DNA of 64,000 nt. Origin: Escherichia phage DCP80. The notes under the pieces are model-generated. The model made no database searches, had not been told where the DNA came from, and saw only the letters and a list, made by a program, of their open reading frames with translations. The DNA lies in sequence record PQ671644.1. One strand, 5' to 3'. Position numbers and translations under genes: made by a program. Below, piece by piece: positions 34,516-50,391 of this stretch (its first letter is position 1; each line of letters opens with the position of its first letter).

Positions 34516-34530
34516 AATATTTTCCTCAGC

Positions 34531-34776
34531 TTATTCAGGGTCTACTGCGCCATCCCACAAGTCAACTTCTTCTGATGATTCCATCAGTTCATCAACTGTG
34601 AAGCACTCAGTATTATTTTCAATTGCAAAACGCTTCTGATAAAAAGGATAATCCAAACAGTTTTCAGTGCGCACTGGACGCTCGCTGTTATCCATTAAAG
34701 GCGAAATGCGAATCAGTTGTTGACCATTACCCAGGACAAATTTTTCACCAACTGCAACGTCTTTAAAAAGTTTCAT
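34531..34776 (-). CDS. Hypothetical protein (81 aa)
   Basis: ORF. Confidence 0.5.
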   Translation of the reverse strand: MKLFKDVAVGEKFVLGNGQQLIRISPLMDNSERPVRTENCLDYPFYQKRFAIENNTECFTVDELMESSEEVDLWDGAVDPE

Positions 34777-34979
34777 TGCTTAGCTCCATTCCAAATTACA
34801 TCAACAACAGACTTCAAACCATTATCCTGGATTTGTGTGAATACTTCAGCAGCAATCCAGACCTGGAAACCAATCATTGCAATGGCACCAATGAAAATCA
34901 GGATAATCATTGCCACAATAAACTTGAACATAAAGTCAAAGCGACGATTGGATTTCTGAAAGTGTGAATTGTAATTCAT
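34773..34979 (-). CDS. Membrane protein (68 aa)
   Basis: Start at M17 with SD gagga. TM segment FKFIVAMIILIFIGAIAMIGFQVWIAA. A truncated copy lies at 49644..49790. Confidence 0.5.
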   Translation of the reverse strand: MNYNSHFQKSNRRFDFMFKFIVAMIILIFIGAIAMIGFQVWIAAEVFTQIQDNGLKSVVDVIWNGAKQ

Positions 34980-34989
34980 AATATTATCC

Positions 34990-35106
34990 TCAAAAGAAAT
35001 AGTTAAAGTAAACACGTACATGGTCAATCATAAAAATAATTGGGAAAATGCTCAGGACAACAAACAATACAAACATGTTCCAAATGGCTTTAAGTAACTT
35101 TTTCAT
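34990..35106 (-). CDS. Small membrane protein (38 aa)
   Basis: SD ggaga. Conserved in the right arm (49360..49476). Confidence 0.4.
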   Translation of the reverse strand: MKKLLKAIWNMFVLFVVLSIFPIIFMIDHVRVYFNYFF

Positions 35107-35132
35107 AATCATCTCCAGTAGTTGATAGGTTC

Positions 35133-35160
35133 ATTATACTACAACCACCGGAGATGTACA
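35133..35160 (-). promoter_or_regulatory. Early sigma70-type promoter
   Basis: gagTGTACA-16nt-TATAATga followed by the leader tcaactactggaga. Confidence 0.6.
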
Positions 35161-35251
35161 CTCTTTTATGCAAGTTTCATTAATAATAAACTAAAACAAA
35201 CGCAAATTACTGGAATACACAACATCCAGATAAGACACCAGGTTTTGCTGC

Positions 35252-35518
35252 TCAAAATATCACCTCTTTTATTTCAATCAGACCCCTGTGCAATGCGGTG
35301 CGAAGGTCATAAAGAATATCTATGCCATCAACATTATCCAGTTTTCCATCAATAAGCTTTTTTAAATCATGCTTTGATGCAACTAGCGGGCGAAGAAATT
35401 TACATTCAGAAAGAGACAATTCTGTAGTAATATCATCACCATCACCTGACGCATCATACATGGCAGCAACAACCATACCTGTAACTTTGTGCTTGGCGTA
35501 ATATAATTTAATATCCAT
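35252..35518 (-). CDS. Hypothetical protein (88 aa), KLYYAKHKVTG family
   Basis: Start at M25. Homologue of 48949..49215 and paralogue of 48689..48952. Confidence 0.5.
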   Translation of the reverse strand: MDIKLYYAKHKVTGMVVAAMYDASGDGDDITTELSLSECKFLRPLVASKHDLKKLIDGKLDNVDGIDILYDLRTALHRGLIEIKEVIF

Positions 35519-35528
35519 TCTGTTTTCC

Positions 35529-35684
35529 TCACGCATAACGATTGTATGTATTTTTACGACAAGCGTAAAATTGACGCTCAGTAACTGCAAAACTTTTTCC
35601 GCGTTGTTGCATTAATTTAAAAAATTCAGTAATATCGCCATTAACTTCAAGGTATAAAGTCATTGCATATTGAGCAGGTTTCAT
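35529..35684 (-). CDS. Hypothetical small protein (51 aa)
   Basis: SD ggag. Present only in the left arm (replaced by 48689..48952 in the right arm). Confidence 0.35.
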   Translation of the reverse strand: MKPAQYAMTLYLEVNGDITEFFKLMQQRGKSFAVTERQFYACRKNTYNRYA

Positions 35685-35722
35685 TTTATTCTCCAGTCTG
35701 TTTGGTAACTCAGTATGGAATC

Positions 35723-35751
35723 ATTATGCACTGACTCCATACTGATGTACA
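35723..35751 (-). promoter_or_regulatory. Early sigma70-type promoter
   Basis: agtagTGTACA-17nt-CATAATgattccatactgagttac. Confidence 0.6.
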
Positions 35752-35762
35752 CTACTTTTTAA

Positions 35763-36038
35763 TTAATTGTGCATTTGTTCTTTAACTTCTTTATATGCGC
35801 CAACTGCATTCACGACCCCAGTAAAATCTGCAGTCCCACGATAGAGATAGAAAGCAATTTCAGTCAGGTGGTAGACTTCAAATTCTGAAAGATAAACGAT
35901 AACGTCATAATATGCAACTTGACCCTGGACTTCGTTGAATGCCACATCAAAAATTTCATGGGTTGGAAAATTGATGTTGTTGTTTTTGAGTGCTTGGATA
36001 AGAATTTGTTTGATGTTGTGAGTAGTAACGTGTTCCAT
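35763..36038 (-). CDS. Hypothetical protein (91 aa)
   Basis: Start at M31 of the track ORF, which otherwise overlaps the upstream gene. Confidence 0.5.
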   Translation of the reverse strand: MEHVTTHNIKQILIQALKNNNINFPTHEIFDVAFNEVQGQVAYYDVIVYLSEFEVYHLTEIAFYLYRGTADFTGVVNAVGAYKEVKEQMHN

Positions 36039-36085
36039 GATAATGTCCTCATTTGTTGGTATGAGGACATTATTACACGGTTGGT

Positions 36086-36679
36086 TCAGCTTGTAAACCG
36101 GTGATAGGGAAATTTTTCTTCTGAACAAGAACGGAGGTACCAGCCATCCCCTTGTGACTTCTGCACAAGACCAGACTCAGGAACGAAAGCACCAGGCCCA
36201 GCAAGGAATTTTGGTTTAAATCTATAACCTTTGAGAGTCTCTTTTACATCGAGCATAATCATAAGGTCAGCAAGCTTGTGCTGCATAAAAGGACCAAGAT
36301 TAATCCCGTAACCATGCGGATAATCGCCCTGGTGGCCAGTGTGTACGGATATCCATTTGGAACCAGACTGGTGGGTCTTGACTTCGATTCTTACCCCTTC
36401 CTTCGAAACTACATCAAATGCAAAGGAATAAGGATTATCGTAATCTTCGTCGCCGCCACATAAAAAACCAGAAGTCCATTTAGCAATAGCTTGTTCAGCC
36501 ATTGTAGCAACCATGCATCTTTGCATGACTTGCTCACGGTCCTGACCTGGGTCTTTACGCAATGAATACCGGGTAGTGTCTACAATCTTCTGCAGGGATT
36601 CGGGGTTTAAGTCTTCCTTTGTATAAAGAAAGGAGGGCATCTTTTTCAGATGCTCCCAGGTTTTACTCTTCTGAATCAT
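36086..36679 (-). CDS. denB: Putative nuclease, DenB (endonuclease IV)-like by position
   Basis: PD-(D/E)xK-like motif FAFDVV...RIEVKTHQ. 197 aa, located downstream of rIIB where T4 has denB. I cannot verify sequence identity to T4 DenB. Confidence 0.4.
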   Translation of the reverse strand: MIQKSKTWEHLKKMPSFLYTKEDLNPESLQKIVDTTRYSLRKDPGQDREQVMQRCMVATMAEQAIAKWTSGFLCGGDEDYDNPYSFAFDVVSKEGVRIEVKTHQSGSKWISVHTGHQGDYPHGYGINLGPFMQHKLADLMIMLDVKETLKGYRFKPKFLAGPGAFVPESGLVQKSQGDGWYLRSCSEEKFPYHRFTS

Positions 36680-36932
36680 TTACGACCTCATCGATACCGA
36701 CGATTCCACGGATGTGAAGCTCACCATAATACAAACGGTCATTAGCATCAAATGTATCAGAATCCGGGTCAGGGAATTCCCCAACAACTACTTCATCACA
36801 TTCCAACCAACCATAGTGAACATCACCTTCATGCTTGATGAGCTTACCGCAGTAAACTATTCCTGCATAATGATGACCCCGGAGATTTGAAACTTTGATG
36901 TCACGGTCTGACACATTGAAATGCTTAATCAT
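36663..36932 (-). CDS. Hypothetical protein (89 aa)
   Basis: ORF, conserved in both arms. Confidence 0.5.
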   Translation of the reverse strand: MIKHFNVSDRDIKVSNLRGHHYAGIVYCGKLIKHEGDVHYGWLECDEVVVGEFPDPDSDTFDANDRLYYGELHIRGIVGIDEVVNDSEE

Positions 36933-36935
36933 AAT

Positions 36936-37133
36936 TTATTCACCAAAATAAGAGATACGAGTTGCCAGTACATGAGCATAAGCGCCCATCGCGTCTAACT
37001 GTGCAATCAAAAGACCTTGTTGACGAGCATCGAGAGTTTCAAAAACACCGCCCTTAATAAATTCTTCAAGAGCATTGATTTTCAAAACCAGCTGGTCATG
37101 TTCTTCAACTACACGTGCTTGGAAACCTAACAT
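36936..37133 (-). CDS. Hypothetical protein (65 aa)
   Basis: ORF with SD tgagg, conserved in both arms. Confidence 0.5.
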   Translation of the reverse strand: MLGFQARVVEEHDQLVLKINALEEFIKGGVFETLDARQQGLLIAQLDAMGAYAHVLATRISYFGE

Positions 37134-37145
37134 AAAGCCTCATTA

Positions 37146-37159
37146 GGGGCCGAAGCCCC
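37146..37159 (-). terminator. C(UUCG)G hairpin in the rIIB-downstream spacer (endonuclease-free site)
   Basis: Plus strand ggggccgaagcccc. This spacer is replaced by the HNH-AP2 gene in the right arm. Confidence 0.5.
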
Positions 37160-37166
37160 GATTAAT

Positions 37167-38141
37167 TTAGAATTGTTCAGTTACATCATCAAGGACCAGG
37201 TAACCACAGACCCTCATCTTACTATCACCATAATCCACCGGGATACTTACAACATCACGCGGGTGAACTTTACAGGATACGATGCGTCCATCACCATGAC
37301 CAAAACCACTTCCAATATAACCTTTAGAGCAAACATGCAACCCAGTTGAACAAGTTTGTTCGTCATTATCGTTCACACGAGAGCGCGGCATTTTAACATA
37401 TTGACCAGGGCTGTTGTCGAATGTATTTGAGTGACAATCTTTGTAAGTTGCACGAACCATTTTCCATGCGATGAAATGACCGTCTTCGGTGATTTCGATA
37501 TCGTTCGCAACCAGGAAGTCAAACAAACGCTGTACGGCTTTCTCACTCGGGTTCTCAAGGAGATTCTCAAGGAACGGCAGATAGAATTCAAAGTCTTCGC
37601 CATTTTGCATTGAATCAATGATACGAGTAACCAGGCCAGAGCGTAGTTCAATTCCCTGATAGAACAGACTACCACCTTCAATACGCACATCGCCTTTCAC
37701 ATATTTTTGTACTGCAGCTTTGATTGAGATAAACTCGATAGCATCATCAAAACGAGATTCAATCAATGCCTGAATAATATCATTAAAGTGTTTATGGTCT
37801 TTTGTGGCGTTCCAGACTGTGCGACCTTCAGTGATGGAAACGAATTTGCTTGATGCGTTCCATACGATTTCTGGGCGGCTACCGCCGATTGTATCTTCAA
37901 CGACCGGAACTTCAACCATTACTGTCACCGGAGCATTAATCGCCACACCAACAGCTGCTTTCAGTGATGCAGAAATGGTTTTAGATAATTTTGATTCTTT
38001 ATCATTTTTCAAAACACGGCGAATGGTGTCAACCGATACACCGAAATTATCTGCTAGTTCCTGTTGGGTATAATTACCAGTTTTATAAAGAGAAACTACC
38101 TGGTTTTGGTCAAATTTGGATAAAGCTTTAATATTAAACAT
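37167..38141 (-). CDS. rIIB: rIIB protein (copy 1)
   Basis: Aligns with remembered T4 rIIB: MFNIK, SGNYTQQELA..GVSVDTIRRVLKN, DVRIEGGSLFYQ.IELRSGLV.RI, FEFY.PFLENLLENPS.KAV.RLFDFLVANDIEITEDG and GLHVCSK. Confidence 0.88.
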   Translation of the reverse strand: MFNIKALSKFDQNQVVSLYKTGNYTQQELADNFGVSVDTIRRVLKNDKESKLSKTISASLKAAVGVAINAPVTVMVEVPVVEDTIGGSRPEIVWNASSKFVSITEGRTVWNATKDHKHFNDIIQALIESRFDDAIEFISIKAAVQKYVKGDVRIEGGSLFYQGIELRSGLVTRIIDSMQNGEDFEFYLPFLENLLENPSEKAVQRLFDFLVANDIEITEDGHFIAWKMVRATYKDCHSNTFDNSPGQYVKMPRSRVNDNDEQTCSTGLHVCSKGYIGSGFGHGDGRIVSCKVHPRDVVSIPVDYGDSKMRVCGYLVLDDVTEQF

Positions 38142-38142
38142 A

Positions 38143-40377
38143 TTATTCCTTATTGGCCGCTTCCACGGCCTTCATGATTTGAGCAACGTTCTGTACTTGT
38201 TCAGTTGACATAGCGTTACGGTTATATAAAAAGTGTGAAACAATCGGGTGATTCTTTTCAAATTCAAAAACCATTTTATCGCTTGTTACCGAAGCGTTTT
38301 TGGTCAGGTCGTCATAAATCTTATTACAAAGGACCAGCGTTTCCTGCATGGTCTTATCAACCGTTCCACTGTTATATGCGTTATAAGCAAAGAACTTATT
38401 GAACTGCATTAGTTCGGCATAGTCAGTATTCACATCTTTCTGAACATCTTTTGCATAAAAATACTTGAACATAAAATTCAGTTCTGCATATTCAGACAGG
38501 ATAGGAATATAATAACGCGAACGGCTTGAAGCGGCAATGTACTGGTCTGCATCAACCGCATCAATCAATTCCACATAACGATTGACTGCAGCTTCAATCA
38601 GACAATCGCACTGCGCCAGCTTGGTAACCTTTTTCTGAAGCTGTGGACGAATAACACAGAATTCATTGATTTCCAACAGATTCGCCAGTTTGCACAATGT
38701 CTGGGTCCCGAAGGTCGTGGTGCCATATTCTTGATTCAACGGGGAAATGCTACTGCGGTTAATGAATACAGCATAACCATCGATTTCCTCTGCATCAGCT
38801 GCACATGTAAATTCTTCAACAGACTGCCAGCGACCATTGGTTTTAGTCCAACGAATCAATGATGGAGTCTTTGACTTAATGCGCGCTTTCGGGTCAGCAA
38901 CCGGAATCCAGTCTTTTACAAGGGCAGTCAGTTCAGACGTACGATAGATATTAACCGTATCGCCTTCAAATCGTTCCTGGAGTTGAACCATCAACCGTGT
39001 CTGAATTTCGCTGGTCGGGTCAACAAACAGTAAACTACTACCCTGACGAGTCGGGACTTTACCAGATGCAATAAGCTTTTTAGCTTTTGCGCTGGTATCA
39101 TACAACATTGAACTGATACCACGAATCATCGCAATTCGCCCTTTAACATCGTCAATAACAATGTTCAAGGTATCATTCTGAATACCAAACATGCTCGTCA
39201 GACTTGCCGTGTTCGAGCTTGAGCTTGAGTTGCGCAGACGTTTCAGACGAGTGTCACGATAGATATCATAGACAACCCCGGCATTAATAAGGTCTTTGTC
39301 CAGCTCGAACATTTCGTACATCTGGTTAAAGGTCAATTGTGATTTCGTAAATTTCGTTTCAGCATTACGAGCTTTCAGAAAATTACGAGCTTCATAATTC
39401 AGATTCTGCAATTCGCGATATGTATGGCGAAGACATTCTGATTCCTGCCATTTCTTACAATCGTCTTCCATGACTTTCTTATCAAGGGCTTCAATACGTT
39501 CAACGATATTTGCGACCGTACGTTTGTCCAGTGATAACGCTTCGCGAGAAGGTGCAATATCCAACGAACCCATCGGGAACTTAATAAAGACAACATCATT
39601 TTTGGCAGTCATCCAGGTTTTCTTGGTGTAACCATCACCAATCGGATAAACAATTCCGCCATAAATTGCATAAAGTCCATAACGTTCTGGACTGCTATAA
39701 TTAATACGCGCTGGAGCATAGTAATCATCAAATTCCGGGAAGTATTCAATTTCGCCAGCGCCTTGCACTTCAGCCAGCCCAGCAAATGGACGCATGATAT
39801 ACGCAATCTCGTAGCGGAACTTACCAAAATCATTACTATCAACCGGGACAACAACTTCAATCCCTGTGCGGTCACCAGGTTTCATTGGTTCACTAAAGGT
39901 TGGCTTAATCTGTGGACCATCGCCGTCCATATAAGCGACATATCCATTAACTTGACCATCATGATATGAAATCAGGCTAAACGTCTCGGTATAACTGAAC
40001 GGAGATTTAGAACCCAGACCAAAGCCACCAATAAAATCGTTGGATTCGGCCTTGGATGATGCAAAGAAACTGTTATACAGACCTGGAGTATTTTCATCAC
40101 CACGAATCTGGAAATCACTCATACCCGGACCAAAGTCACGACATACAAAACGTGGGTCCAGTTCACCAGGAGCTTGCACAATGAATTTATCCTGACATCC
40201 ATTGAGCATATGAGCATCAATCATATTGGTAATCAGCTCACGAACAACCGCGCGCACCTTGTTTGTATAAAGGTCGCTGGTCAGAATCTTAAACACCTTT
40301 GGAGATGCCTGGATTGTGAATGCTGATGCCTTGGCACCATTACCAAGGATTGTTTCCTTTTCAGTTTCTAAAATCAT
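38143..40377 (-). CDS. rIIA: rIIA protein (copy 1)
   Basis: Aligns with remembered T4 rIIA: TEKETILGNG.K, SPKVFKIL.SDLYTNK.RAVVRELITNMIDAH, DPRFVCRDFGPGMSDF, ESNDFIGGFGLGSKSPFSYT, GYVAYMDGDGPQIKPTF and LDIAPSREALSLD. Confidence 0.92.
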   Translation of the reverse strand: MILETEKETILGNGAKASAFTIQASPKVFKILTSDLYTNKVRAVVRELITNMIDAHMLNGCQDKFIVQAPGELDPRFVCRDFGPGMSDFQIRGDENTPGLYNSFFASSKAESNDFIGGFGLGSKSPFSYTETFSLISYHDGQVNGYVAYMDGDGPQIKPTFSEPMKPGDRTGIEVVVPVDSNDFGKFRYEIAYIMRPFAGLAEVQGAGEIEYFPEFDDYYAPARINYSSPERYGLYAIYGGIVYPIGDGYTKKTWMTAKNDVVFIKFPMGSLDIAPSREALSLDKRTVANIVERIEALDKKVMEDDCKKWQESECLRHTYRELQNLNYEARNFLKARNAETKFTKSQLTFNQMYEMFELDKDLINAGVVYDIYRDTRLKRLRNSSSSSNTASLTSMFGIQNDTLNIVIDDVKGRIAMIRGISSMLYDTSAKAKKLIASGKVPTRQGSSLLFVDPTSEIQTRLMVQLQERFEGDTVNIYRTSELTALVKDWIPVADPKARIKSKTPSLIRWTKTNGRWQSVEEFTCAADAEEIDGYAVFINRSSISPLNQEYGTTTFGTQTLCKLANLLEINEFCVIRPQLQKKVTKLAQCDCLIEAAVNRYVELIDAVDADQYIAASSRSRYYIPILSEYAELNFMFKYFYAKDVQKDVNTDYAELMQFNKFFAYNAYNSGTVDKTMQETLVLCNKIYDDLTKNASVTSDKMVFEFEKNHPIVSHFLYNRNAMSTEQVQNVAQIMKAVEAANKE

Positions 40378-40384
40378 GTTTTTC

Positions 40385-40594
40385 TCACTTTATGTTACGT
40401 TTGATTAATTCTGCAACTTCAAGAAGTTCATCCTTTGTTGCGGTGTCTGAAGCTATTTTAATACGGATTTCTTTGAAGCGTTCTTTAAACTCTTCAGCTT
40501 CTCTTATATCAAAAAAACGTTGGATAACACGGTATTCTTTATGGATAGCCTTATCAAACAGTTCCATATTAACTTTGAAGTTCGTCATTTCCAA
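40385..40594 (-). CDS. Hypothetical protein (69 aa)
   Basis: ORF, conserved in both arms. Confidence 0.5.
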   Translation of the reverse strand: MEMTNFKVNMELFDKAIHKEYRVIQRFFDIREAEEFKERFKEIRIKIASDTATKDELLEVAELIKRNIK

Positions 40595-40853
40595 TCTCCT
40601 GTAATATTTTTCTCATACTACGCATGGTAGCTTTATGTTCTTGGTCATGGTATATCAATGCAAGGAGTGCTTCAATTCGCTCCTCAGGGACCTTCTGGCC
40701 AGCCTTAATTCTCATGGCTGATGTTCTTACAGCTAACAAGTAACTTCGCTTCCTGTCGTTATCTGGGAGCCCCTGCACTTTCCTCAGACCTGCTTCCATA
40801 ATACACCGTGCGACATTTTGCAGATTAACTAAACTTCCGTCAGACATAATCAT
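40569..40853 (-). CDS. Hypothetical protein (94 aa)
   Basis: ORF with SD gaggtg, conserved in both arms (4 aa differences). Confidence 0.5.
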   Translation of the reverse strand: MIMSDGSLVNLQNVARCIMEAGLRKVQGLPDNDRKRSYLLAVRTSAMRIKAGQKVPEERIEALLALIYHDQEHKATMRSMRKILQEIGNDELQS

Positions 40854-40870
40854 ATTTTCACCTCAAAGAC

Positions 40871-40899
40871 ATCTTAACACACTTTTTGTGGCTTGTACA
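40871..40899 (-). promoter_or_regulatory. Early sigma70-type promoter
   Basis: aTGTACA-17nt-TAAGAT. Confidence 0.5.
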
Positions 40900-40908
40900 T
40901 AATAAAAA

Positions 40909-40926
40909 GGTCTCCCGAAGGAGACC
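40909..40926 (-). terminator. C(UUCG)G hairpin plus T-run
   Basis: Plus strand aaaaaggtctcccgaaggagacc. Confidence 0.7.
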
Positions 40927-40931
40927 AAATT

Positions 40932-40993
40932 TTATTCTACTTTATAGACTTGACCATACGCCATGAAAGTTTCACCTTCCCAGGTTTCGCACG
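40932..40993 (-). CDS. 3' fragment of a small ORF (homologue of 42834..42986), truncated by the gap
   Basis: Identical (reverse complement) to 42925..42986. Confidence 0.4.
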
Positions 40994-41040
40994 NNNNNNN
41001 NNNNNNNNNNNNNNNNNNNNNNNNNNNNNNNNNNNNNNNN
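40994..41040. other. Assembly gap (N47)
   Basis: Run of n. Confidence 1.
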
Positions 41041-41041
41041 A

Positions 41042-42793
41042 TTCTTGTTTGGTGAATATAAGTCCGTAAGCTATGTTCCTGGTATTGTAAAACTGATTGA
41101 TGAAATTATCGATAACTCTGTTGATGAAGCAATTCGCACCAGTTTTAAATTCGCCAATAAAATTGATGTTCAAATTAAAGGCAATAAGGTTATCGTTGAA
41201 GATAACGGACGCGGTATTCCACAAGCAATGGTTGTCGACCAGACCGGTGAACAAATACCTGGCCCTGTCGCGGCATGGACTATTCCAAAGGCCGGTGGCA
41301 ACTTCGGTGATGATGCTGAGCGTAAAACTGGCGGGATGAATGGCGTTGGTAGTAGTTTAACCAACATCTTCTCTGTAACATTTGCGGGTGCAACTTGTGA
41401 TGGTGAGAATGAAATTGTCGTACGTTGTTCTAACGGAATGGAAAATAAGAGCTGGAATAAAGTTCCCGCTTCGAAGAAAGAACATGTGAAGGCTAAGACT
41501 GGTACGGTTGTTTCCTTTATTCCCGAATTCAGCCATTTTGAAACTAATGGACTCGACGAGACTTATGACGCCATCACATTGGACCGTCTACAGACTCTTG
41601 CGGTTGTTTATCCGGATATTCAGTTTACCTTTAATGGCAAAAAGGTTGATGGTAACTTCAAGAAGTTCGCCAAGCAATTTGGAACCGAAGTTGTTATCCA
41701 GGAAACTGATACGGTATCGATGGCCTTTACGACTAGCCCGGATGGTTTCCGTCAGTTGACTTATGTCAACAACATTCATACAAAGAATGGCGGACACCAC
41801 GTTGAATGTGTTATGGATGATATCTGTGAACATCTTCAACCAGCCATTAAACGCAAATATAAAGGCATCGAGGTGACCAAGGCACGAGTTAAAGAATGTC
41901 TCACCATGCTTATGTTCATCCGCGATATGAGCAACATGCGATTTGATTCCCAGACCAAAGAGCGATTGACTTCTCCGGCTGGTGAAATTCGAAATCACAT
42001 TAAGATTGATGCTAAGAAAATCGCGCAAGCTATTCTGAAAAATGAACCGCTGATTATGCCGATTGTTGAAGCTGCATTAGCCCGTAAATTGGCTGCAGAA
42101 AAAGCAGCAGAGACTAAAGCGAATAAGAAAGCTTCGAAGGCTAAGGTACAAAAGCATATCAAAGCCAACGAATGGGGTAACGACAAACTTGAAACGACTC
42201 TATTCCTGACCGAAGGGGATTCTGCAACGGGTCCATTTATCAAGGTTCGCGACCGTGAATTGCAAGGTGCTTATCCATTACGTGGTAAGTTTAAAAACAC
42301 ATGGGGTCTGAAAGCTGTTGACGTTATGAAGAACGCTGAAGCCTTTGATGTGTGTGCAATTACTGGGTTAACGATTGGACAACCGGCCAAGAATATGAAT
42401 TACCGAAACATTGCTATCATGACAGATGCGGATGTGGATGGTGTCGGTAGTATCTATCCATCGTTATTGGCGTTTTTCAGTAACTGGCCAGAGCTGTTCC
42501 ATGAAGGACGAATTCGCTTTGTGAAAACTCCTGTTATTATTGCGCAGCTCAAAGACAAACAAGAATGGTTCTATTCTCTTCCTGACTATGAAGAAGCTAA
42601 GGATAAACTTCCGAAGCACACCATCCGATATATCAAGGGGCTTGGTTCTCTGGAAGATTCCGAGTATAAACGCGTATTGCTCGAACCAGTATTCGAAGTT
42701 GTCCAATTGCCTGATAACTGGAAAGAACTGTTCGAAATGTTATTCGGTAAAGATTCACAACAGCGTAAAGATTGGATGAATGCGACGCTATAA
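41042..42793 (+). CDS. 39: DNA topoisomerase II large subunit (T4 gp39, with the gp60 region fused), 5'-truncated by the gap
   Basis: Aligns with remembered T4 gp39 from about residue 35: YVPG.VKLIDEIIDNSVDE, VEDNGRGIPQ, PGPVAAWTIPKAGGNFGDD and GGMNGVGSSLTNIFS. Toprim motifs LTEGDSA and MTDADVDG lie in one continuous ORF. Confidence 0.9.
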   Translation, partial: FLFGEYKSVSYVPGIVKLIDEIIDNSVDEAIRTSFKFANKIDVQIKGNKVIVEDNGRGIPQAMVVDQTGEQIPGPVAAWTIPKAGGNFGDDAERKTGGMNGVGSSLTNIFSVTFAGATCDGENEIVVRCSNGMENKSWNKVPASKKEHVKAKTGTVVSFIPEFSHFETNGLDETYDAITLDRLQTLAVVYPDIQFTFNGKKVDGNFKKFAKQFGTEVVIQETDTVSMAFTTSPDGFRQLTYVNNIHTKNGGHHVECVMDDICEHLQPAIKRKYKGIEVTKARVKECLTMLMFIRDMSNMRFDSQTKERLTSPAGEIRNHIKIDAKKIAQAILKNEPLIMPIVEAALARKLAAEKAAETKANKKASKAKVQKHIKANEWGNDKLETTLFLTEGDSATGPFIKVRDRELQGAYPLRGKFKNTWGLKAVDVMKNAEAFDVCAITGLTIGQPAKNMNYRNIAIMTDADVDGVGSIYPSLLAFFSNWPELFHEGRIRFVKTPVIIAQLKDKQEWFYSLPDYEEAKDKLPKHTIRYIKGLGSLEDSEYKRVLLEPVFEVVQLPDNWKELFEMLFGKDSQQRKDWMNATL

Positions 42794-42801
42794 ATAGATG
42801 T

Positions 42802-42817
42802 GGGAGAATATTCTCCC
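42802..42817 (+). terminator. Perfect 16-bp palindromic hairpin after gene 39
   Basis: gggagaatattctccc. Confidence 0.4.
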
Positions 42818-42833
42818 GCTACTAGGAGACAAT

Positions 42834-42986
42834 ATGACTAAATACTGGATTACACTCGCTACCGGTGAATATGGTTTTCTCTGGGCAGAGAAAAAGCCTT
42901 TGTTTGCAGAATTTGTAACAATCACGTGCGAAACCTGGGAAGGTGAAACTTTCATGGCGTATGGTCAAGTCTATAAAGTAGAATAA
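42834..42986 (+). CDS. Hypothetical small protein (50 aa)
   Basis: ATG (M13 of the track ORF) with SD aggag. Confidence 0.4.
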   Translation: MTKYWITLATGEYGFLWAEKKPLFAEFVTITCETWEGETFMAYGQVYKVE

Positions 42987-42991
42987 AATTT

Positions 42992-43015
42992 GGTCTCCTT
43001 CGGGAGACCTTTTTA
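42992..43015 (+). terminator. C(UUCG)G hairpin plus T-run
   Basis: ggtctccttcgggagacc followed by ttttt. Confidence 0.7.
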
Positions 43016-43018
43016 TTA

Positions 43019-43047
43019 TGTACAAGCCACAAAAATTGTGTTAAGAT
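43019..43047 (+). promoter_or_regulatory. Early sigma70-type promoter
   Basis: aTGTACA-17nt-TAAGAT. Confidence 0.5.
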
Positions 43048-43064
43048 GTCTTTGAGGTGAAAAT

Positions 43065-43349
43065 ATGATTATGTCTGACGGAAGTTTAGTTAATCTGCAG
43101 AATGTCGCACGGTGTATTATGGAAGCAGGCCTGAGGAAGGTACAGGAGCTCCCAGATAGCGACAGGAAGCGAAGTTACTTGTTAGCTGTAAGAACAGCAG
43201 CCATGAGCATTAAGGCTGGCCAGAAGGTCCCTGAGGAGCGAATTGAAGCACTTCTTGCATTGATATACCATGACCAAGAACATAAAGCTACCATGCGTAG
43301 TATGAGAAAAATATTACAGGAGATTGGAAATGACGAACTTCAAAGTTAA
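43065..43349 (+). CDS. Hypothetical protein (94 aa), copy 2
   Basis: Homologue of 40569..40853. Confidence 0.5.
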   Translation: MIMSDGSLVNLQNVARCIMEAGLRKVQELPDSDRKRSYLLAVRTAAMSIKAGQKVPEERIEALLALIYHDQEHKATMRSMRKILQEIGNDELQS

Positions 43350-43533
43350 TATGGAGCTGTTTGATAAAGCTGTTCATAAAGAATACCGCGTTATCCAACG
43401 ATTTTTTGATATAAGAGAAGCTGAAGAGTTTAAAGAACGCTTCAAAGAAATCCGTATTAAAATAGCTTCAGACACCGCAACAAAGGATGAACTTCTTGAA
43501 GTTGCAGAATTAATCAAACGTAACATAAAGTGA
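43324..43533 (+). CDS. Hypothetical protein (69 aa), copy 2
   Basis: Homologue of 40385..40594. Confidence 0.5.
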   Translation: MEMTNFKVNMELFDKAVHKEYRVIQRFFDIREAEEFKERFKEIRIKIASDTATKDELLEVAELIKRNIK

Positions 43534-43540
43534 GAAAAAC

Positions 43541-45775
43541 ATGATTTTAGAAACTGAAAAGGAAACAATCCTTGGTAATGGTGCCAAGGCATCAGCATTC
43601 ACAATCCAGGCATCTCCAAAGGTGTTTAAGATTCTGACCAGCGACCTTTATACAAACAAGGTGCGCGCGGTTGTTCGTGAGCTGATTACCAATATGATTG
43701 ATGCTCATATGCTCAATGGCTGTCAGGATAAATTCATTGTTCAAGCTCCTGGTGAACTGGACCCACGTTTTGTGTGTCGTGACTTTGGTCCAGGTATGAG
43801 TGATTTCCAGATTCGTGGTGATGAAAATACGCCAGGTCTGTATAACAGTTTCTTTGCATCATCCAAGGCTGAATCCAATGATTTTATTGGTGGCTTCGGC
43901 TTGGGTTCTAAATCTCCGTTTAGTTATACAGAGACGTTTAGCCTGATTTCATATCATGATGGACAAGTTAATGGTTATGTCGCTTATATGGACGGTGATG
44001 GTCCACAGATTAAGCCAACCTTTAGCGAACCAATGAAACCTGGTGACCGCACAGGGATTGAAGTTGTTGTCCCGGTTGATAGTAATGATTTCGGTAAGTT
44101 CCGTTATGAGATTGCATATATCATGCGTCCATTTGCTGGACTGGCTGAAGTGCAAGGCGTAGGCGAAATTAATTACTTCCCAGAATTTGATGATTATTAT
44201 GCTCCAGCGCGTATTAATTATAGCAGTCCAGAACGTTATGGACTTTATGCAATTTATGGTGGAATTGTTTATCCGATTGGTGATGGTTACACCAAGAAAA
44301 CCTGGATGACTGCCAAAAATGATGTTGTCTTTATTAAGTTCCCAATGGGTTCGCTGGATATTGCACCTTCTCGCGAAGCGTTATCACTGGACAAACGTAC
44401 GGTCGCAAATATCGTTGAACGTATTGAAGCCCTTGATAAGAAAGTCATGGAAGATGATTGTAAGAAATGGCAGGAATCAGAATGTCTCCGCCATACATAT
44501 CGCGAATTGCAGAATCTGAATTATGAAGCTCGTAATTTTCTGAAAGCTCGTAATGTTGAAACGAAATTTACGAAATCACAATTGACCTTTAACCAGATGT
44601 ACGAAATGTTCGAGCTGGACAAAGACCTTATTAATGCCGGGGTTGTCTATGATATCTATCGCGATACTCGTCTGAAACGTCTGCGTAACGCAAGCTCAAG
44701 CTCGAACACGGCAAGTCTGACGCGCATGTTTGGTATTCAGACTGATACCTTGAACATTGTTATTGATGATGCTAAAGGGCGAATTGCGATGATTCGTGGT
44801 ATCAGTTCAATGTTGTATGATACCAGCGCGAAAGCTAAAAAGCTTATTGCATCTGGTAAAGTCCCGACTCGTCAGGGTAGTAGTTTACTGTTTGTTGACC
44901 CAACCAGCGAAATTCAAACACGGTTGATGGTTCAACTCCAGGAACGATTTAAAGGCGATACGGTTAATATCTATCGTACGTCTGAACTGACTGCCCTTGT
45001 AAAAGACTGGATTCCGGTTGCTGACCCGAAAGCGCGCGTTAAGTCAAAGACTCCATCATTGATTCGTTGGACTAAAACTAATGGTCGCTGGCAGTCTGTT
45101 GAAGAATTTACATGTGCAGCTGATGCAGAGGAAATCGATGGTTATGCTGTATTCATTAACCGCAGTAGCATTTCCCCGTTGAATCAAGAATACGGCACCA
45201 CGACCTTCGGGACCCAGACATTGTGTAAACTGGCAAACCTGTTGGAAATCAATGAATTCTGTGTTATTCGTCCACAGCTTCAGAAAAAGGTTACCAAGCT
45301 GGCGCAGTGCGATTGTCTGATTGAAGCTGCAGTCAATCGTTATGTGGAATTGATTGATGCGGTTGATGCGGACCAGTACATTGCCGCTTCAAGCCGTTCG
45401 CGTTATTATATTCCTATCCTGTCTGAATATGCAGAACTGAATTTTATGTTCAAGTATTTTTATGCAAAAGATGTTCAGAAAGATGTGAATACTGACTATG
45501 CCGAACTAATGCAGTTCAATAAGTTCTTTGCTTATAACGCATATAACAGTGGAACAGTTGATAAGACCATGCAGGAAACATTGGTCCTTTGTAATAAGAT
45601 TTATGACGACCTGACCAAAAACGCTTCGGTAACAAGCGATAAAATGGTTTTTGAATTTGAAAAGAATCACCCGATTGTTTCACACTTTTTATATAACCGT
45701 AACGCTATGTCAACTGAACAAGTACAGAACGTTGCTCAAATCATGAAGGCCGTGGAAGCGGCCAATAAGGAATAA
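43541..45775 (+). CDS. rIIA: rIIA protein (copy 2)
   Basis: 744 aa, about 10 aa differences from copy 1. Same T4 rIIA motifs. Confidence 0.92.
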   Translation: MILETEKETILGNGAKASAFTIQASPKVFKILTSDLYTNKVRAVVRELITNMIDAHMLNGCQDKFIVQAPGELDPRFVCRDFGPGMSDFQIRGDENTPGLYNSFFASSKAESNDFIGGFGLGSKSPFSYTETFSLISYHDGQVNGYVAYMDGDGPQIKPTFSEPMKPGDRTGIEVVVPVDSNDFGKFRYEIAYIMRPFAGLAEVQGVGEINYFPEFDDYYAPARINYSSPERYGLYAIYGGIVYPIGDGYTKKTWMTAKNDVVFIKFPMGSLDIAPSREALSLDKRTVANIVERIEALDKKVMEDDCKKWQESECLRHTYRELQNLNYEARNFLKARNVETKFTKSQLTFNQMYEMFELDKDLINAGVVYDIYRDTRLKRLRNASSSSNTASLTRMFGIQTDTLNIVIDDAKGRIAMIRGISSMLYDTSAKAKKLIASGKVPTRQGSSLLFVDPTSEIQTRLMVQLQERFKGDTVNIYRTSELTALVKDWIPVADPKARVKSKTPSLIRWTKTNGRWQSVEEFTCAADAEEIDGYAVFINRSSISPLNQEYGTTTFGTQTLCKLANLLEINEFCVIRPQLQKKVTKLAQCDCLIEAAVNRYVELIDAVDADQYIAASSRSRYYIPILSEYAELNFMFKYFYAKDVQKDVNTDYAELMQFNKFFAYNAYNSGTVDKTMQETLVLCNKIYDDLTKNASVTSDKMVFEFEKNHPIVSHFLYNRNAMSTEQVQNVAQIMKAVEAANKE

Positions 45776-45776
45776 T

Positions 45777-46754
45777 ATGTTTAATATCAAATGTATGTCT
45801 AAAGCCGAACAAGAACGAGTTGTCTCTCTTTATGAATCTGGTAACTATACGCAAGACGAACTTGCACTCGGTTTCGGCGTTTCGGTTGACACCATTCGTC
45901 GCGTTTTGAAAAATGACAAAGAATCAAAATTAGCTAAAACCATTTCTGCATCACTGAAAGCCGCTGTCGGGGTGGCGATTAATGCTCCAGTGACAGTAAC
46001 AGTTGAAGCCCCGGTTGAAGCCACAATCGGTGGAAGCCGCCCGGAAATCGTATGGAATGCATCAAGTAAATTCGTTTCCATTACTGAAGGTCGTACAGTC
46101 TGGAATGCAACAAAAGACCATAAACACTTTGATGATATTATTCAGGCACTCAAAGAATCTCGTTTTGATGATGCTATTGAGTATATCTCAATCAAAGCTG
46201 CAGTACAAAAATATGTGAAAGGCGATGTGCGTATTGAAGGTGGTAGTCTGTTCTATCAGGGAATTGAACTGCGCTCTGGCCTGGTTACTCGTATCATTGA
46301 TTCAATGCAAAATGGCGAAGACTTTGAATTCTATCTGCCATTCCTTGAGAATCTCCTTGAGAACCCGAGTGAGAAAGCCGTACAGCGTTTGTTTGACTTC
46401 CTGGTTGCGAACGATATCGAAATCACCGAAGACGGCCATTTCATCGCATGGAAAATGGTTCGTGCAACCTACAAAGATTGTCACTCAAACACATTCGACA
46501 ACAGCCCTGGCCAATATGTTAAAATGCCACGCTCTCGTGTGAATGACAATGACGAACAAACTTGTTCGACTGGTCTGCACGTTTGCTCTAAAGGCTATAT
46601 CGGAAGTGGTTTTGGTCATGGTGATGGACGCATCGTATCCTGTAAAGTTCACCCGCGTGATGTTGTAAGTATCCCGGTGGATTATTCCGATAGTAAGATG
46701 AGGGTTTGCGGTTACCTGGTTCTTGAAGATGTGACCGAACGTTTCAATGATTAA
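45777..46754 (+). CDS. rIIB: rIIB protein (copy 2)
   Basis: 325 aa. Same T4 rIIB motifs. More diverged from copy 1 in the N-terminal roughly 90 aa. Confidence 0.88.
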   Translation: MFNIKCMSKAEQERVVSLYESGNYTQDELALGFGVSVDTIRRVLKNDKESKLAKTISASLKAAVGVAINAPVTVTVEAPVEATIGGSRPEIVWNASSKFVSITEGRTVWNATKDHKHFDDIIQALKESRFDDAIEYISIKAAVQKYVKGDVRIEGGSLFYQGIELRSGLVTRIIDSMQNGEDFEFYLPFLENLLENPSEKAVQRLFDFLVANDIEITEDGHFIAWKMVRATYKDCHSNTFDNSPGQYVKMPRSRVNDNDEQTCSTGLHVCSKGYIGSGFGHGDGRIVSCKVHPRDVVSIPVDYSDSKMRVCGYLVLEDVTERFND

Positions 46755-47238
46755 ACAAACAATTGCTAAAGATGGCTCGGCTCGTGGTATTGTCCACGGG
46801 CTAGGTCACACGCCTGAATACATTGTATGGATTGGCATGAAAGCTCGGTGTTGCAATCCAACACATATTAGTTATTCTCGATATGGCGGTCGGGGTATCA
46901 CTGTTTGCGATGAATGGCTGCATGATTTTGAAAGATTTTATACAGATATGGGGCCACGACCCACTGACAAACATCAACTTGACCGAACAGATAACGATAA
47001 AGGGTACTCTCCCGATAACTGCAGATGGGTTAGTCCAGGCGAGAATGCTTTAAATAAGCGCCCGTATAATAACAACAAGTCTGGATTTAAAGGAGTCTCG
47101 TTTGATAAACGAGCTTTGAATAAACCATGGCGAGCCACTATTATGCGAAATAAAAAACAAATTCAAGTCGGAGCTTTTGCAACTCCAGAAGAAGCAAATG
47201 AAGCTCGATTAAAATATATGGAAGAACACAATGTCTAA
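46747..47238 (+). CDS. HNH-AP2 homing endonuclease (163 aa)
   Basis: HNH-like DRTDNDKGYSPDNCRWVSPGENALN plus an AP2-type DNA-binding domain FKGVSF...PWRATIMRNKKQIQVGAFATPEEANEARLKY. Absent from the left arm. Confidence 0.8.
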   Translation: MIKQTIAKDGSARGIVHGLGHTPEYIVWIGMKARCCNPTHISYSRYGGRGITVCDEWLHDFERFYTDMGPRPTDKHQLDRTDNDKGYSPDNCRWVSPGENALNKRPYNNNKSGFKGVSFDKRALNKPWRATIMRNKKQIQVGAFATPEEANEARLKYMEEHNV

Positions 47239-47440
47239 AGAAATGTTAGGTTTCCAAGCACGTGTAGTTGAAGAACATGACCAGCTGGTTTTGAAAATTA
47301 ATGCTCTTGAAGAATTTATTAAGGGCGGAGTTTTTGAAACTCTCGATGCTCGTCAACAAGGTCTTTTGATTGCCCAGTTAGATGCAATGGGTGCATATGC
47401 TCATATACTGGCAACTCGTATCTCTTATTTTGGTGAATAA
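47231..47440 (+). CDS. Hypothetical protein (start 47231 or 47243), copy 2
   Basis: Homologue of 36936..37133. Confidence 0.5.
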   Translation: MSKEMLGFQARVVEEHDQLVLKINALEEFIKGGVFETLDARQQGLLIAQLDAMGAYAHILATRISYFGE

Positions 47441-47443
47441 ATT

Positions 47444-47713
47444 ATGATTAAGCATTTCAATGTGTCAGACCGTGACATCAAAGTTTCAAATCTCCGGGGT
47501 CATCATTATGCGGGAATAGTTTACTGCGGTAAGCTCATCAAGCATGAAGGTGATGTTCACTATGGTTGGTTGGAATGTGATGAAGTAGTTGTTGGGGAAT
47601 TCCCTGACCCGAATTCTGATACATTTGATGCTAATGACCGTTTGTATTATGGCGAGCTTCACATCCGTGGAATCGTCGGTATCGATGAGGTCGTAAATGA
47701 TTCAGAAGAGTAA
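47444..47713 (+). CDS. Hypothetical protein (89 aa), copy 2
   Basis: Homologue of 36663..36932. Confidence 0.5.
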   Translation: MIKHFNVSDRDIKVSNLRGHHYAGIVYCGKLIKHEGDVHYGWLECDEVVVGEFPDPNSDTFDANDRLYYGELHIRGIVGIDEVVNDSEE

Positions 47714-48290
47714 AACCTGGGAGCATTTGAAAAAGATGCCCTCCTTTCTTTATACGAAGGAAGACTTAACCCCCGAATCCCTACAAAAGATTGTAGACAC
47801 TGCCAGATATTCATTGCGTAAAGACCCAGGTCAGGACCGTGAGCAAGTCATGCAAAGATGTATGGTGGCCACAATGGCTGAACAAGCTATTGCTAAATGG
47901 ACCTCCGGTTTTTTATGTGGCGGTGATGAAGATTACGATAATCCTTATTCCTTTGCATTTGATGTAGTTTCGAAGGAAGGGGTGAGAATCGAAGTCAAGA
48001 CCCACCAGTCTGGGTCCAAATGGATATCCGTGCATACTGGCCACCAGGGCGATTATCCACATGGTTACGGGATTAATCTTGGTCCTTTTATGCAACACAA
48101 GCTTGCTGACCTTATGATTATGCTCGATGTAAAAGAGACTCTCAAAGGTTATAGATTTAAACCAAAATTCCTTGCTGGACCCGGTGCTTTCGTTCCTGAG
48201 TCTGGTCTTGTGCAGAAGTCACAAGGGGATGGCTGGTACCTCCGTTCTTGTTCAGAAGAAAAATTTCCCTATCACCGGTTTACAAGCTGA
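47697..48290 (+). CDS. denB: Putative nuclease, DenB-like by position, copy 2
   Basis: Homologue of 36086..36679. Confidence 0.4.
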   Translation: MIQKSKTWEHLKKMPSFLYTKEDLTPESLQKIVDTARYSLRKDPGQDREQVMQRCMVATMAEQAIAKWTSGFLCGGDEDYDNPYSFAFDVVSKEGVRIEVKTHQSGSKWISVHTGHQGDYPHGYGINLGPFMQHKLADLMIMLDVKETLKGYRFKPKFLAGPGAFVPESGLVQKSQGDGWYLRSCSEEKFPYHRFTS

Positions 48291-48337
48291 ACCAACTGTG
48301 TAATAATGTCCTCATACCAACAAATAAGGACATTATC

Positions 48338-48613
48338 ATGGAACACGTTACTACTCACAACATCAAACAAATTCTTATCCAAGCACTCAAAAACAACAAC
48401 ATCAATTTTCCAACCCATGAAATTTTTGATGTGGTATTCAACGAAGTCCAGGGTCAAGTTGCATATTATGACGTTATCGTTTATCTTTCAGAATTTGAAG
48501 TCTACCATCTGACTGAAATTGCTTTCTATCTCTATCGTGGGACTGCAGATTTTACTGGGGTCGTGAATGCAGTTGGCGCATATAAAGAAGTTAAAGAGCA
48601 AATGCACAATTAA
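48338..48613 (+). CDS. Hypothetical protein (91 aa), copy 2
   Basis: Homologue of 35763..36038. Confidence 0.5.
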   Translation: MEHVTTHNIKQILIQALKNNNINFPTHEIFDVVFNEVQGQVAYYDVIVYLSEFEVYHLTEIAFYLYRGTADFTGVVNAVGAYKEVKEQMHN

Positions 48614-48624
48614 TTAAAAAGTAG

Positions 48625-48653
48625 TGTACATCAGTATGGAGTCAGTGCATAAT
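48625..48653 (+). promoter_or_regulatory. Early sigma70-type promoter
   Basis: agtagTGTACA-17nt-CATAATgattccatactgagttac. Confidence 0.6.
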
Positions 48654-48688
48654 GATTCCATACTGAGTTACCAACCTGGAGAAACAAA

Positions 48689-48952
48689 ATGAAATTTAAA
48701 TTTTATTATATTAAGCATAAAGTTACTGGGGAGTTTATTGCATTTACAACTTCATCCAATAATCAAGGTGATACTTTTACTTCATTGTTCTTATCTAGAT
48801 GGGATTCAGACCAGCCTTATTTGTCCACAAAAGAGCATCTTCAACGTATGGCGAAGGGCGAGCTAAACGATTCTTGGGATAATATTGTGAATAATTGTAT
48901 CAAGAAAGCTATCCAAGAAAATCAACTTGAAATCATTGAGGTGGAATTGTGA
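48689..48952 (+). CDS. Hypothetical protein (87 aa), KFYYIKHKVTG family, right arm only
   Basis: Paralogue of the next gene (shared N-terminal K.YY.KHKVTG and C-terminal LEIIEVEL / LIEIKEVIF). Confidence 0.5.
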   Translation: MKFKFYYIKHKVTGEFIAFTTSSNNQGDTFTSLFLSRWDSDQPYLSTKEHLQRMAKGELNDSWDNIVNNCIKKAIQENQLEIIEVEL

Positions 48953-49215
48953 ATATTAAATTATATTACGCCAAGCACAAAGTTACAGGTATGGTTGTTG
49001 CTGCTATGTATGACGCGTCAGGCGATGGTGATGATGTTATTACAGAGTTATCTCTTTCTGATTGTAAATTTCTTCGCCCGTTGGTTGCATCAAAGCGTGA
49101 TTTAAAAAAGCTTATTGATGGTAAGCTGGACAATATTGATGGTATAGATATTTTTTATGACCTCCGCGTCGCATTGTCTGATGGATTGATTGAAATCAAA
49201 GAGGTGATATTTTGA
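48949..49215 (+). CDS. Hypothetical protein (88 aa), copy 2
   Basis: Homologue of 35252..35518. Confidence 0.5.
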   Translation: MNIKLYYAKHKVTGMVVAAMYDASGDGDDVITELSLSDCKFLRPLVASKRDLKKLIDGKLDNIDGIDIFYDLRVALSDGLIEIKEVIF

Positions 49216-49305
49216 GCAGCAAAACCTGGTGTCTTATCTGGATGTTGTGTATCCCAGTAATTTGCGTTTGTTTTAGTTTATTATTAATGAAACTTGCATA
49301 AAGAG

Positions 49306-49333
49306 TGTACATCTCCGGTGGTTGTAGTATAAT
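49306..49333 (+). promoter_or_regulatory. Early sigma70-type promoter
   Basis: gagTGTACA-16nt-TATAATga. Confidence 0.6.
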
Positions 49334-49359
49334 GAACCTATCAACTACTGGAGATGATT

Positions 49360-49476
49360 ATGAAAAAGTTACTTAAAGCCATTTGGAACATGTTTATACT
49401 GTTTGTTGTCCTGAGCATTTTCCCAATTGTTTTTATGATTGACCATGTACGTGTTTACTTTAACTATTTCTTTTGA
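49360..49476 (+). CDS. Small membrane protein (38 aa), copy 2
   Basis: Homologue of 34990..35106. Confidence 0.4.
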   Translation: MKKLLKAIWNMFILFVVLSIFPIVFMIDHVRVYFNYFF

Positions 49477-49486
49477 GGATAATACT

Positions 49487-49633
49487 ATGATAGTTATGAA
49501 AAAGTTTAAAGAATATCATTGCTATGAATGTGGCAAAAAGATTGATTCTATTCATTCATTAAACGTCTTTTCTTTTGATAATTTAAACTATGCACACATT
49601 TGGTGCCTTCGTGGAATGACTAAATTTAACTGA
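49487..49633 (+). CDS. Small Cys-containing protein (48 aa), right arm only
   Basis: SD gagga. Contains CYEC...C. Flanked by a duplicated tgaggataata(c/t)tATG junction. Confidence 0.35.
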   Translation: MIVMKKFKEYHCYECGKKIDSIHSLNVFSFDNLNYAHIWCLRGMTKFN

Positions 49634-49643
49634 GGATAATATT

Positions 49644-49790
49644 ATGAATTACAATTCACACTTTCAGAAATCCAATCGCCGCTTTGACTTTATGTTCAAG
49701 TTTATTGTGGCAATGATTATCCTGATTTTCATTGGTGCCATTGCAATGATTGGTTTCCAGGTCTGGATTGCTGCTGAAGTATTCACACAA
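49644..49790 (+). CDS. Membrane protein, 3'-truncated by the gap (copy 2 of 34773..34979)
   Basis: MNYNSHFQKSNRRFDFMFKFIVAMIILIF... runs into the N10 gap. Confidence 0.45.
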
Positions 49791-49800
49791 NNNNNNNNNN
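49791..49800. other. Assembly gap (N10)
   Basis: Run of n. Confidence 1.
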
Positions 49801-49831
49801 TTTACAATTGAGTTAACTCCCAAGGATTAAT

Positions 49832-50143: not shown

Positions 50144-50333
50144 ACCGTTTAAGCGGCTTCGTGTAGGGGCCGCTTTCAGATTTCGCTCATATGGTGATAT
50201 CTGTATCAAGCAGACCGAAACCGAATGTAAGCTCCTTGGCCCTTATGGTGTTCCAAAAGGTATTGTTAAAATTGAGCCGACATCCAAAGTTTGGGTGGAT
50301 TCACACCAACTTAAGAAATGGTGGCAACGATGA
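50127..50333 (+). CDS. Hypothetical basic protein (68 aa)
   Basis: ORF overlapping the upstream gene by 17 nt. Confidence 0.45.
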   Translation: MALVNKPFKRLRVGAAFRFRSYGDICIKQTETECKLLGPYGVPKGIVKIEPTSKVWVDSHQLKKWWQR

Positions 50334-50391
50334 TAACATGGACAGCAGGCTAATGAAAGACGAATACGAAAAAGTTTAAGAGGTTGTATGA

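Follow-up and report, generated by a model that had tools for sequence, protein, structure and literature searches.

We examined a 64,000-nt stretch of the sequence record PQ671644.1 of Escherichia phage DCP80 (hereafter the window, numbered from its first nucleotide), in which a block containing rIIA, rIIB and denB occurs twice, in opposite orientations, on either side of the topoisomerase gene 39. Sequence comparison assigns the locus to a Gaprivervirus coliphage (Straboviridae, Tevenvirinae), in which it spans 39–rIIA–rIIB–denB–ndd. What looks like a giant inverted duplication is almost certainly artefactual. We consider it highly probable (about 0.93) that a strain mixture was resolved by the assembler as two overlapping contigs, which were then concatenated.

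Runs of N divide the window into six contigs (c1–c6). The whole genome of the Gaprivervirus isolate CJ20 was rebuilt from five pieces, and every contig was aligned to the rebuilt genome by local blastn, with the following result:

1-30710: contig c1, no CJ20 match
30721-40993 (10,273 nt), minus strand: contig c2, matching CJ20 25683-35998 in reverse
41041-49790 (8,750 nt), plus strand: contig c3, matching CJ20 23820-31935 in the forward direction
49801-56742: contig c4, matching CJ20 163548-169884 plus 1-921
56761-62886, minus strand: contig c5, matching CJ20 5185-11196 in reverse
62941-64000, minus strand: contig c6, matching CJ20 52298-53355 in reverse
30711-30720, 40994-41040 (47 N), 49791-49800, 56743-56760 and 62887-62940, no strand: N padding, each run ending at a multiple of 60

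The nature of the joins could be read from these coordinates. The five N runs (10, 47, 10, 18 and 54 nt) end at 30720, 41040, 49800, 56760 and 62940, each a multiple of 60, for which the chance is about (1/60)^5, and the lengths of the stretches between them strictly fall (30710, 10273, 8750, 6942 and 6126 nt), the sixth stretch stopping at the window end. The N runs therefore fill out lines of 60 bases and separate independent contigs arranged longest first; they are not sized scaffold gaps. As the contigs map to scattered places in CJ20, their order and orientation in the window carry no information on genome order. The apparent inverted arrangement on either side of gene 39 arises from c2, which is stored in reverse, being printed ahead of c3. 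A previous description of this DNA, made from its letters and open reading frames (ORFs) and here called the sequence-only reading, had proposed that a scaffolder set the two arms head to head; the 60-base padding and the decreasing lengths point instead to plain concatenation.

Both copies of the block match one and the same place in complete Gaprivervirus genomes (CJ20 25683-31935 and TH57 145715-151871). Within CJ20 the block is single copy, the other matches being only intergenic elements of 40-90 nt with 78-87% identity. The genes of the two contigs that carry the block are arranged as follows:

c2, read rightwards in the window: motA, gene 52, ndd, small ORFs, denB, rIIB, rIIA and the 3'-terminal part of the small ORF downstream of gene 39
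c3: gene 39 (lacking its 5' end, which falls outside the contig), rIIA.1, rIIA, rIIB, an HNH gene, denB and small ORFs

The T4-type gene order 39–rIIA–rIIB–denB–ndd–52–motA, which the sequence-only reading had recognized in each arm, was found in the contigs both by colinearity with the annotated CJ20 genome and by Pfam hits. The same gene order characterizes the rII region of Gaprivervirus isolates (such as CJ20, SP18, VR7, VR20 and MN01), and each contig corresponds to complete genomes of the genus with 94-98% nucleotide identity. Compared with these isolates, the arms represent new alleles within the known population diversity, and their combination of present and absent modules differs from that of every isolate examined. 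Contig c4 was also seen to run from 163548-169884 of CJ20 into 1-921, across the two ends of this linear record, as would be expected of a circularly permuted T4-type genome; the ends of the CJ20 record are therefore arbitrary.

The ends of the contigs provided further evidence, in the form of exact overlaps of identical length:

40883-40993, the terminal 111 nt of c2: reverse-complement match, without mismatch, to 42925-43035 within c3, ending after exactly 111 nt
49680-49790, the terminal 111 nt of c3: reverse-complement match, without mismatch, to 34833-34943 within c2, ending after exactly 111 nt

Contig c1 overlaps itself by the same length (1-111 is identical to 30600-30710). The occurrence of one length, 111 nt, at three independent termini points to the k of the assembler, and these overlaps are the signature of a de Bruijn graph assembler run with k = 111. 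In such a graph, 40883-40993 would be the vertex where haplotype 2 joins the sequence proximal to gene 39, and 49680-49790 would be the vertex where haplotype 1 joins the sequence proximal to ndd. The 111 nt at the inner end of the left arm are also those found next to the 3' flank of gene 39 in c3; because of this identity, both variants attach on the same side of gene 39.

The two arms of the repeat are thus the parts of c2 and c3 that overlap each other:

34833-40993, minus strand: left arm, the part of c2 overlapping c3; haplotype 2, without the HNH gene, with an architecture like that of CJ20, TH57, P896 and DK-13
42925-49790, plus strand: right arm, the part of c3 overlapping c2; haplotype 1, with the HNH gene, with an architecture like that of MN01, TH54 and phage 212

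As laid out in the window, these arms form an inverted repeat of about 6.1 kb in which all shared genes are intact. Six ungapped blocks of 160-3091 nt, with 91-99% identity, join 34833-40993 to 42925-49790. In the full alignment, with the left arm reverse-complemented, 5817 matches and 323 mismatches (94.7% identity) were counted, together with 726 extra bases in the right arm and 21 in the left; the longest identical run measured 318 nt, and six internal runs exceeded 111 nt. Such similarity cannot be due to chance. Ten shared ORFs are intact in both arms, and their pooled differences (159 synonymous and 68 non-synonymous) correspond to a synonymous divergence (dS) of 0.15, a non-synonymous divergence (dN) of 0.016 and a dN/dS ratio of 0.11. 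This ratio, which indicates purifying selection on both copies, and the intact ORFs fit functional orthologues, each of them the sole copy of its own genome.

These data allowed most of the descriptive claims of the sequence-only reading to be evaluated. The pairwise alignment and dN/dS estimate that it had proposed as a check are the values given above (94.7% and 0.11). Its observation that the arms stop exactly at N was correct (40993/40994 and 49790/49791), as was its placement of the left arm's end inside the 3' end of the small ORF downstream of gene 39. Colinearity of the arms was borne out for the coordinates and for about 6.1 kb of homology; it is broken by three structural differences, namely an HNH gene, a module swap and a 157-nt insertion.

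We further analyzed how the arms relate to other phages. A tblastn search with rIIA found 2042 places in 2034 phage records; at E ≤ 1e-100 it returned 839 places distributed over 838 records, with exactly one in each of the 33 Gaprivervirus records (33/33). Accordingly, every Gaprivervirus record has a single rIIA copy, as do essentially all of the approximately 2,000 records that carry the gene. A block alignment was then built from the two arms and seven isolates (CJ20, phage 212, TH57, P896, MN01, TH54 and DK-13), in which identity to CJ20 was 96.8% for the left arm and 96.5% for the right, against 94.7% between the arms; by local blastn, the left arm matched CJ20 with 98.3% identity over 5.3 kb. 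In nearly all 500-nt windows some isolate was closer to each arm than the other arm was, often at 98-100% identity. The arms are not each other's closest relatives, and their divergence lies within the diversity of the population. All three structural differences also segregate among the isolates. Since the arms are closer to isolates than to each other and the insertions and deletions segregate in this way, the arms appear to be ordinary mosaic alleles drawn from the population rather than products of duplication within one genome.

These observations suggest the following scenario. A sample containing at least two closely related strains would have been assembled from short reads in a de Bruijn graph with k = 111. 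The locus would form a bubble in this graph, in which the shared flank containing gene 39 splits into variants 1 and 2, which rejoin at the shared flank on the ndd side. One contig, c3, would have been written as the gene 39 flank plus variant 1 and the other, c2, as variant 2 plus the ndd-side flank, each variant path being cut k bases into the sequence common with the other variant. The contigs would then have been joined end to end from the longest downwards, without regard to orientation and with N added after each up to the next multiple of 60 bases. By this concatenation c2 and c3 would have come to lie adjacent and head to head, with no inverted repeat in any genome and no flipping of gene 39. 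The padding, the order of lengths, the mapping, the k-mer overlaps, the single copy in relatives and the lack of a sister relationship between the arms were all observed directly; that the flanks are common to both strains would follow from graph logic combined with the comparative data. The sequence-only reading had itself preferred two alleles of one locus from co-assembled strains, and this part of it agrees with a shared single-copy locus, the 111-nt overlaps, arms that are not sisters and rIIA being single copy.

The arrangement resembles the strain-variant bubbles known from de Bruijn assemblies of metagenomes and viromes, in which the same locus is found on two contigs with about 95% identity and shared ends of k bases, with a single-copy place in the reference and a genome that is otherwise fragmented. 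It does not differ in kind from the usual bubble, except that it is long (6-7 kb) and phased through identical stretches longer than k. Nothing in the underlying biology is unusual: the sample would contain two strains from a coliphage genus that has been well sampled, with about 5% divergence in rII and with three modules, mobile or shuffled, that differ between them, including a predicted HNH homing-endonuclease gene. The main value of this case is a methodological warning, as features that rest on adjacency or orientation across such N runs, such as inverted repeats, synteny breaks and truncated genes, are uninformative in this data set.

Several points weigh against the strain-mixture interpretation or limit its detail. 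The placement of the two haplotypes on different molecules or virions draws on graph logic and comparative data, and the contig boundaries were read from the window sequence itself. Exact-word DNA searches gave no match, whether with the variant-specific end of c2 in a collection of viral contigs, with the shared 111-mer in genome and metagenome contigs or with c1 in all three collections, and exact-protein searches with the two rIIA copies were likewise negative. The window covers only part of the assembly, and the rest of it, in which a contig with a tandem-duplication junction might be found, lies outside. In addition, the six internal identical runs of more than 111 nt (up to 318 nt) were bridged by the assembler, and each contig could therefore be a phase-switched mosaic of strains. 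More than two strains may also be present.

We considered three other explanations. A genuine inverted rII duplication of about 6-7 kb in one genome around gene 39, whose arms could recombine and thereby invert gene 39, would look like the window layout, with arms facing opposite ways on either side of the gene and both copies intact, but we attach practically no probability to it. The arms lie on separate contigs joined only by padding N, so that neighbors in the window are not neighbors in the genome. Furthermore, both copies face gene 39 from the same side, whereas a real inverted repeat needs opposite sides. The arms are not the nearest relatives of each other, and two rIIA copies were found in none of the 33 Gaprivervirus records (0/33) and in essentially none of the approximately 2000 rIIA-bearing records. 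T4-type recombination, for which less than 50 bp of homology is quoted as sufficient (PMC2839356), would be expected to homogenize or rearrange such arms. Amplified DNA is reported to lead, under headful packaging, to compensating deletions (PMC9391042), and headful packaging would leave little room for an extra 6-7 kb without them. The possibility raised in the sequence-only reading, a giant inverted duplication able to flip gene 39, thus found no support in the separate contigs, the same-side junctions and the single copy in relatives.

A heterozygous tandem (direct) rII duplication in one genome, generated by unequal recombination between co-infecting strains, would give a similar graph topology, with two variants and shared flanks, plus one extra junction edge, and tandem rII duplications are known in T4 (Kumagai et al. 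1993, as cited in PMC9391042). We nevertheless regard it as very improbable. No novel junction was found within the 64-kb window, outside of which the smaller contigs lie, and the arm ends are set by identity of length k and not by a breakpoint. No relative carries such a duplication, and a genome of about 170 kb in contigs of 10 kb or less suits a genome-wide strain mixture rather than a single local duplication. Tandem rII duplications are unstable and limited by packaging, and this expected instability and packaging limit also argue against one here. The laboratory rII duplications of T4 (Kumagai et al. 1993, Genetics 135:255) likewise yield two rII copies at this locus; however, they are direct repeats on one molecule, with a novel junction and copies that were identical at the outset, whereas here the copies lie on separate contigs with no junction seen and show the divergence of a population mosaic. 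The third explanation, that contigs from different samples, libraries or bins were pooled after assembly, gains something from the fact that the record mixes unrelated entities, c1 being from a different phage, but it is very unlikely in view of the reciprocal and exact 111-nt terminal overlaps of c2 and c3, which show that the two were cut against each other in one graph and, hence, were assembled together. Taken together, the chance that one Gaprivervirus genome truly has two diverged and functional rIIA–rIIB–denB copies, whether inverted or tandem, is very small. If it did, it would provide the first example of an rII duplication in nature and a means of inverting gene 39: homologous recombination between inverted copies could flip this topoisomerase gene, and two rII alleles in tandem might counter different host exclusion systems. 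Nothing in our data supports a duplication.

Under the preferred explanation of two co-assembled strains, the structural differences between the arms become differences between strains. They comprise the following features:

46747-47238, plus strand: predicted free-standing HNH homing-endonuclease gene, 163 aa, right arm only (phrog_374 "HNH endonuclease", E = 8e-59)
48672-48950 of the right arm versus 35517-35702 of the left: non-homologous module swap, detected in the alignment
48689-48952, plus strand: phrog_2390 paralog, 87 aa, right arm only
35529-35684: unrelated 51-aa ORF of the left arm, in the module-swap region
49474-49630, plus strand: 157-nt insertion, right arm only, with a small phrog_25572 ORF (49439-49633); 155 of the 157 nt are matched in MN01

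The HNH gene also matches several other HNH PHROGs, and its C-terminus is AP2-like (Pfam AP2, E = 2e-4, under the curated cut-off). It lies between rIIB and an ORF of the crAss001_48 family and overlaps each of them by 8 nt, at the rIIB stop and at the start of that ORF. All 492 nt of the gene are identical in MN01 (Bangladesh) and TH54 (USA), and the gene is degraded in phage 212; in the isolate comparison, it was absent from the left arm, CJ20, TH57, P896 and DK-13. The whole-block identity of the right arm to MN01 and TH54 is only 93-95%. Because the HNH gene is 100% identical within a block of 93-95% identity, its pattern is that expected of an actively spreading homing endonuclease, and the sample apparently holds both an occupied and an empty homing site. 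The gene resembles the free-standing HNH homing endonucleases of T-even phages in being a 163-aa ORF between two conserved genes with a patchy presence among relatives, and in its 100% identity among isolates whose flanks differ by several percent. Compared with those enzymes, the function here is predicted from sequence, and the AP2-like DNA-binding region scores under Pfam's cut-off.

The module swap involves a family of unknown function. The right arm has two tandem phrog_2390 paralogs (48689-48952, 87 aa, and 48949-49215, 88 aa); in the left arm, only the second is present (35252-35518) and the first is replaced by the 51-aa ORF. The 87-aa paralog is common to the right arm, CJ20 and phage 212. 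An early-promoter-like repeat of approximately 57-65 nt, GTGTACA-N17-CATAATGATTCCATACTGAGTTAC, was observed at 48616-48671, 35705-35760, 31687-31753 and 58976-59040, and the copies at 48616-48671 and 35705-35760 sit exactly at the edge of the module swap. In having a promoter-like repeat at this edge that recurs in intergenic positions, the region is similar to the PeSL/early-promoter cassettes of T4-type phages (PMC2839356, PMC4122927), in a comparison that covers the promoter-like part of these cassettes. Promoter-cassette-mediated modular shuffling has been reported in T4-type phages (PMC2839356), and the swap seen here resembles it.

The remaining genes of the locus were identified as follows:

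41042-42793, plus strand: gene 39, topoisomerase II large subunit, GyrB-like (Pfam HATPase_c, DNA_gyraseB and TOPRIM_C; annotation of CJ20_044)
43541-45775, plus strand: rIIA, right copy, 744 aa, 99.2% identical to CJ20 rIIA by tblastn
38143-40377, minus strand: rIIA, left copy, 744 aa, 99.6% identical to CJ20 rIIA by tblastn
45777-46754, plus strand: rIIB, right copy, 325 aa, colinear with CJ20_048 rIIB
37167-38141, minus strand: rIIB, left copy, 324 aa, differing from the right copy at 21 residues
47697-48290, plus strand (right), and 36086-36679, minus strand (left): denB, endonuclease IV, 197 aa, colinear with CJ20_050 "DNA endonuclease IV" and with MN01 denB
34773-34979: 68-aa DUF7248 ORF, complete on the left contig only, the right copy being cut by the contig end after 49 codons

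In gene 39, the reading frame remains open between 41042 and the contig start, and colinearity with CJ20 (gene start at 23719, contig start at 23820) indicates that about 34 N-terminal codons are missing, in close agreement with the approximately 35 of the sequence-only reading. The same reading had rIIA full length in both copies with about 10 of 744 residues different; both copies are indeed 744 aa, and they differ at 9 residues (98.8% identity, dN/dS 0.058). Its 68-aa membrane ORF, placed on both arms, holds for the left arm, where it is complete; the right copy is the one truncated after 49 codons. In c2, Pfam hits were obtained for Ndd, topoisomerase subunit A and MotA. The Pfam search gave no hit for rIIA and denB, which were instead identified by tblastn to T4 and CJ20 together with the colinear annotation; in tblastn, T4 rIIA (X52686.1) is 50.8% identical to the right copy across 99% of its length. 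The denB copies differ at 2 residues, with a dN/dS of 0.02.

Between the arms, dS is 0.31 in rIIB and 0.10 in rIIA. Arm identity falls to 87-90% at 45675-46172, which takes in the rIIA/rIIB junction together with the 5' portion of rIIB; the left arm does not differ from CJ20 there (100% identity). Such a drop in identity, with the left arm equal to CJ20, points to a putative recombination mosaic boundary within the rII genes. A further 68-aa ORF with an ATG start (48306-48512, plus strand, and 35864-36070, minus strand) overlaps, in another frame, a 91-aa gene (48338-48613 and 35763-36038). The ORF at 48306-48512 shows 0 synonymous and 3 non-synonymous differences between the arms. Given these differences and its overlap with the annotated 91-aa gene, it is probably not a gene, and the 91-aa ORF at 48338-48613 was used in its place in the dN/dS set.

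Contig c1 was siphovirus-like in its gene content, which included:

1734-3716: lambda-type TerL
4194-5735: portal protein
5789-7789: protease–major capsid fusion
14463-16877: tape measure protein
18637-22437: J-like tail protein

No nucleotide match to c1 was detected among 50,697 phage records, and its TerL has at most 30% identity to anything in the phage collection. Judging from these comparisons, c1 is a different phage, unrelated to the Gaprivervirus contigs. Tandem Repeats Finder detected no array at its termini, only dispersed matches of 30-34 nt, and the terminal 111-nt identity was rejected as a tandem repeat. Because its first and last 111 nt are identical, c1 probably forms a path that closes into a circle of 30,599 bp, and it may represent a fairly novel small phage or a prophage-like element.

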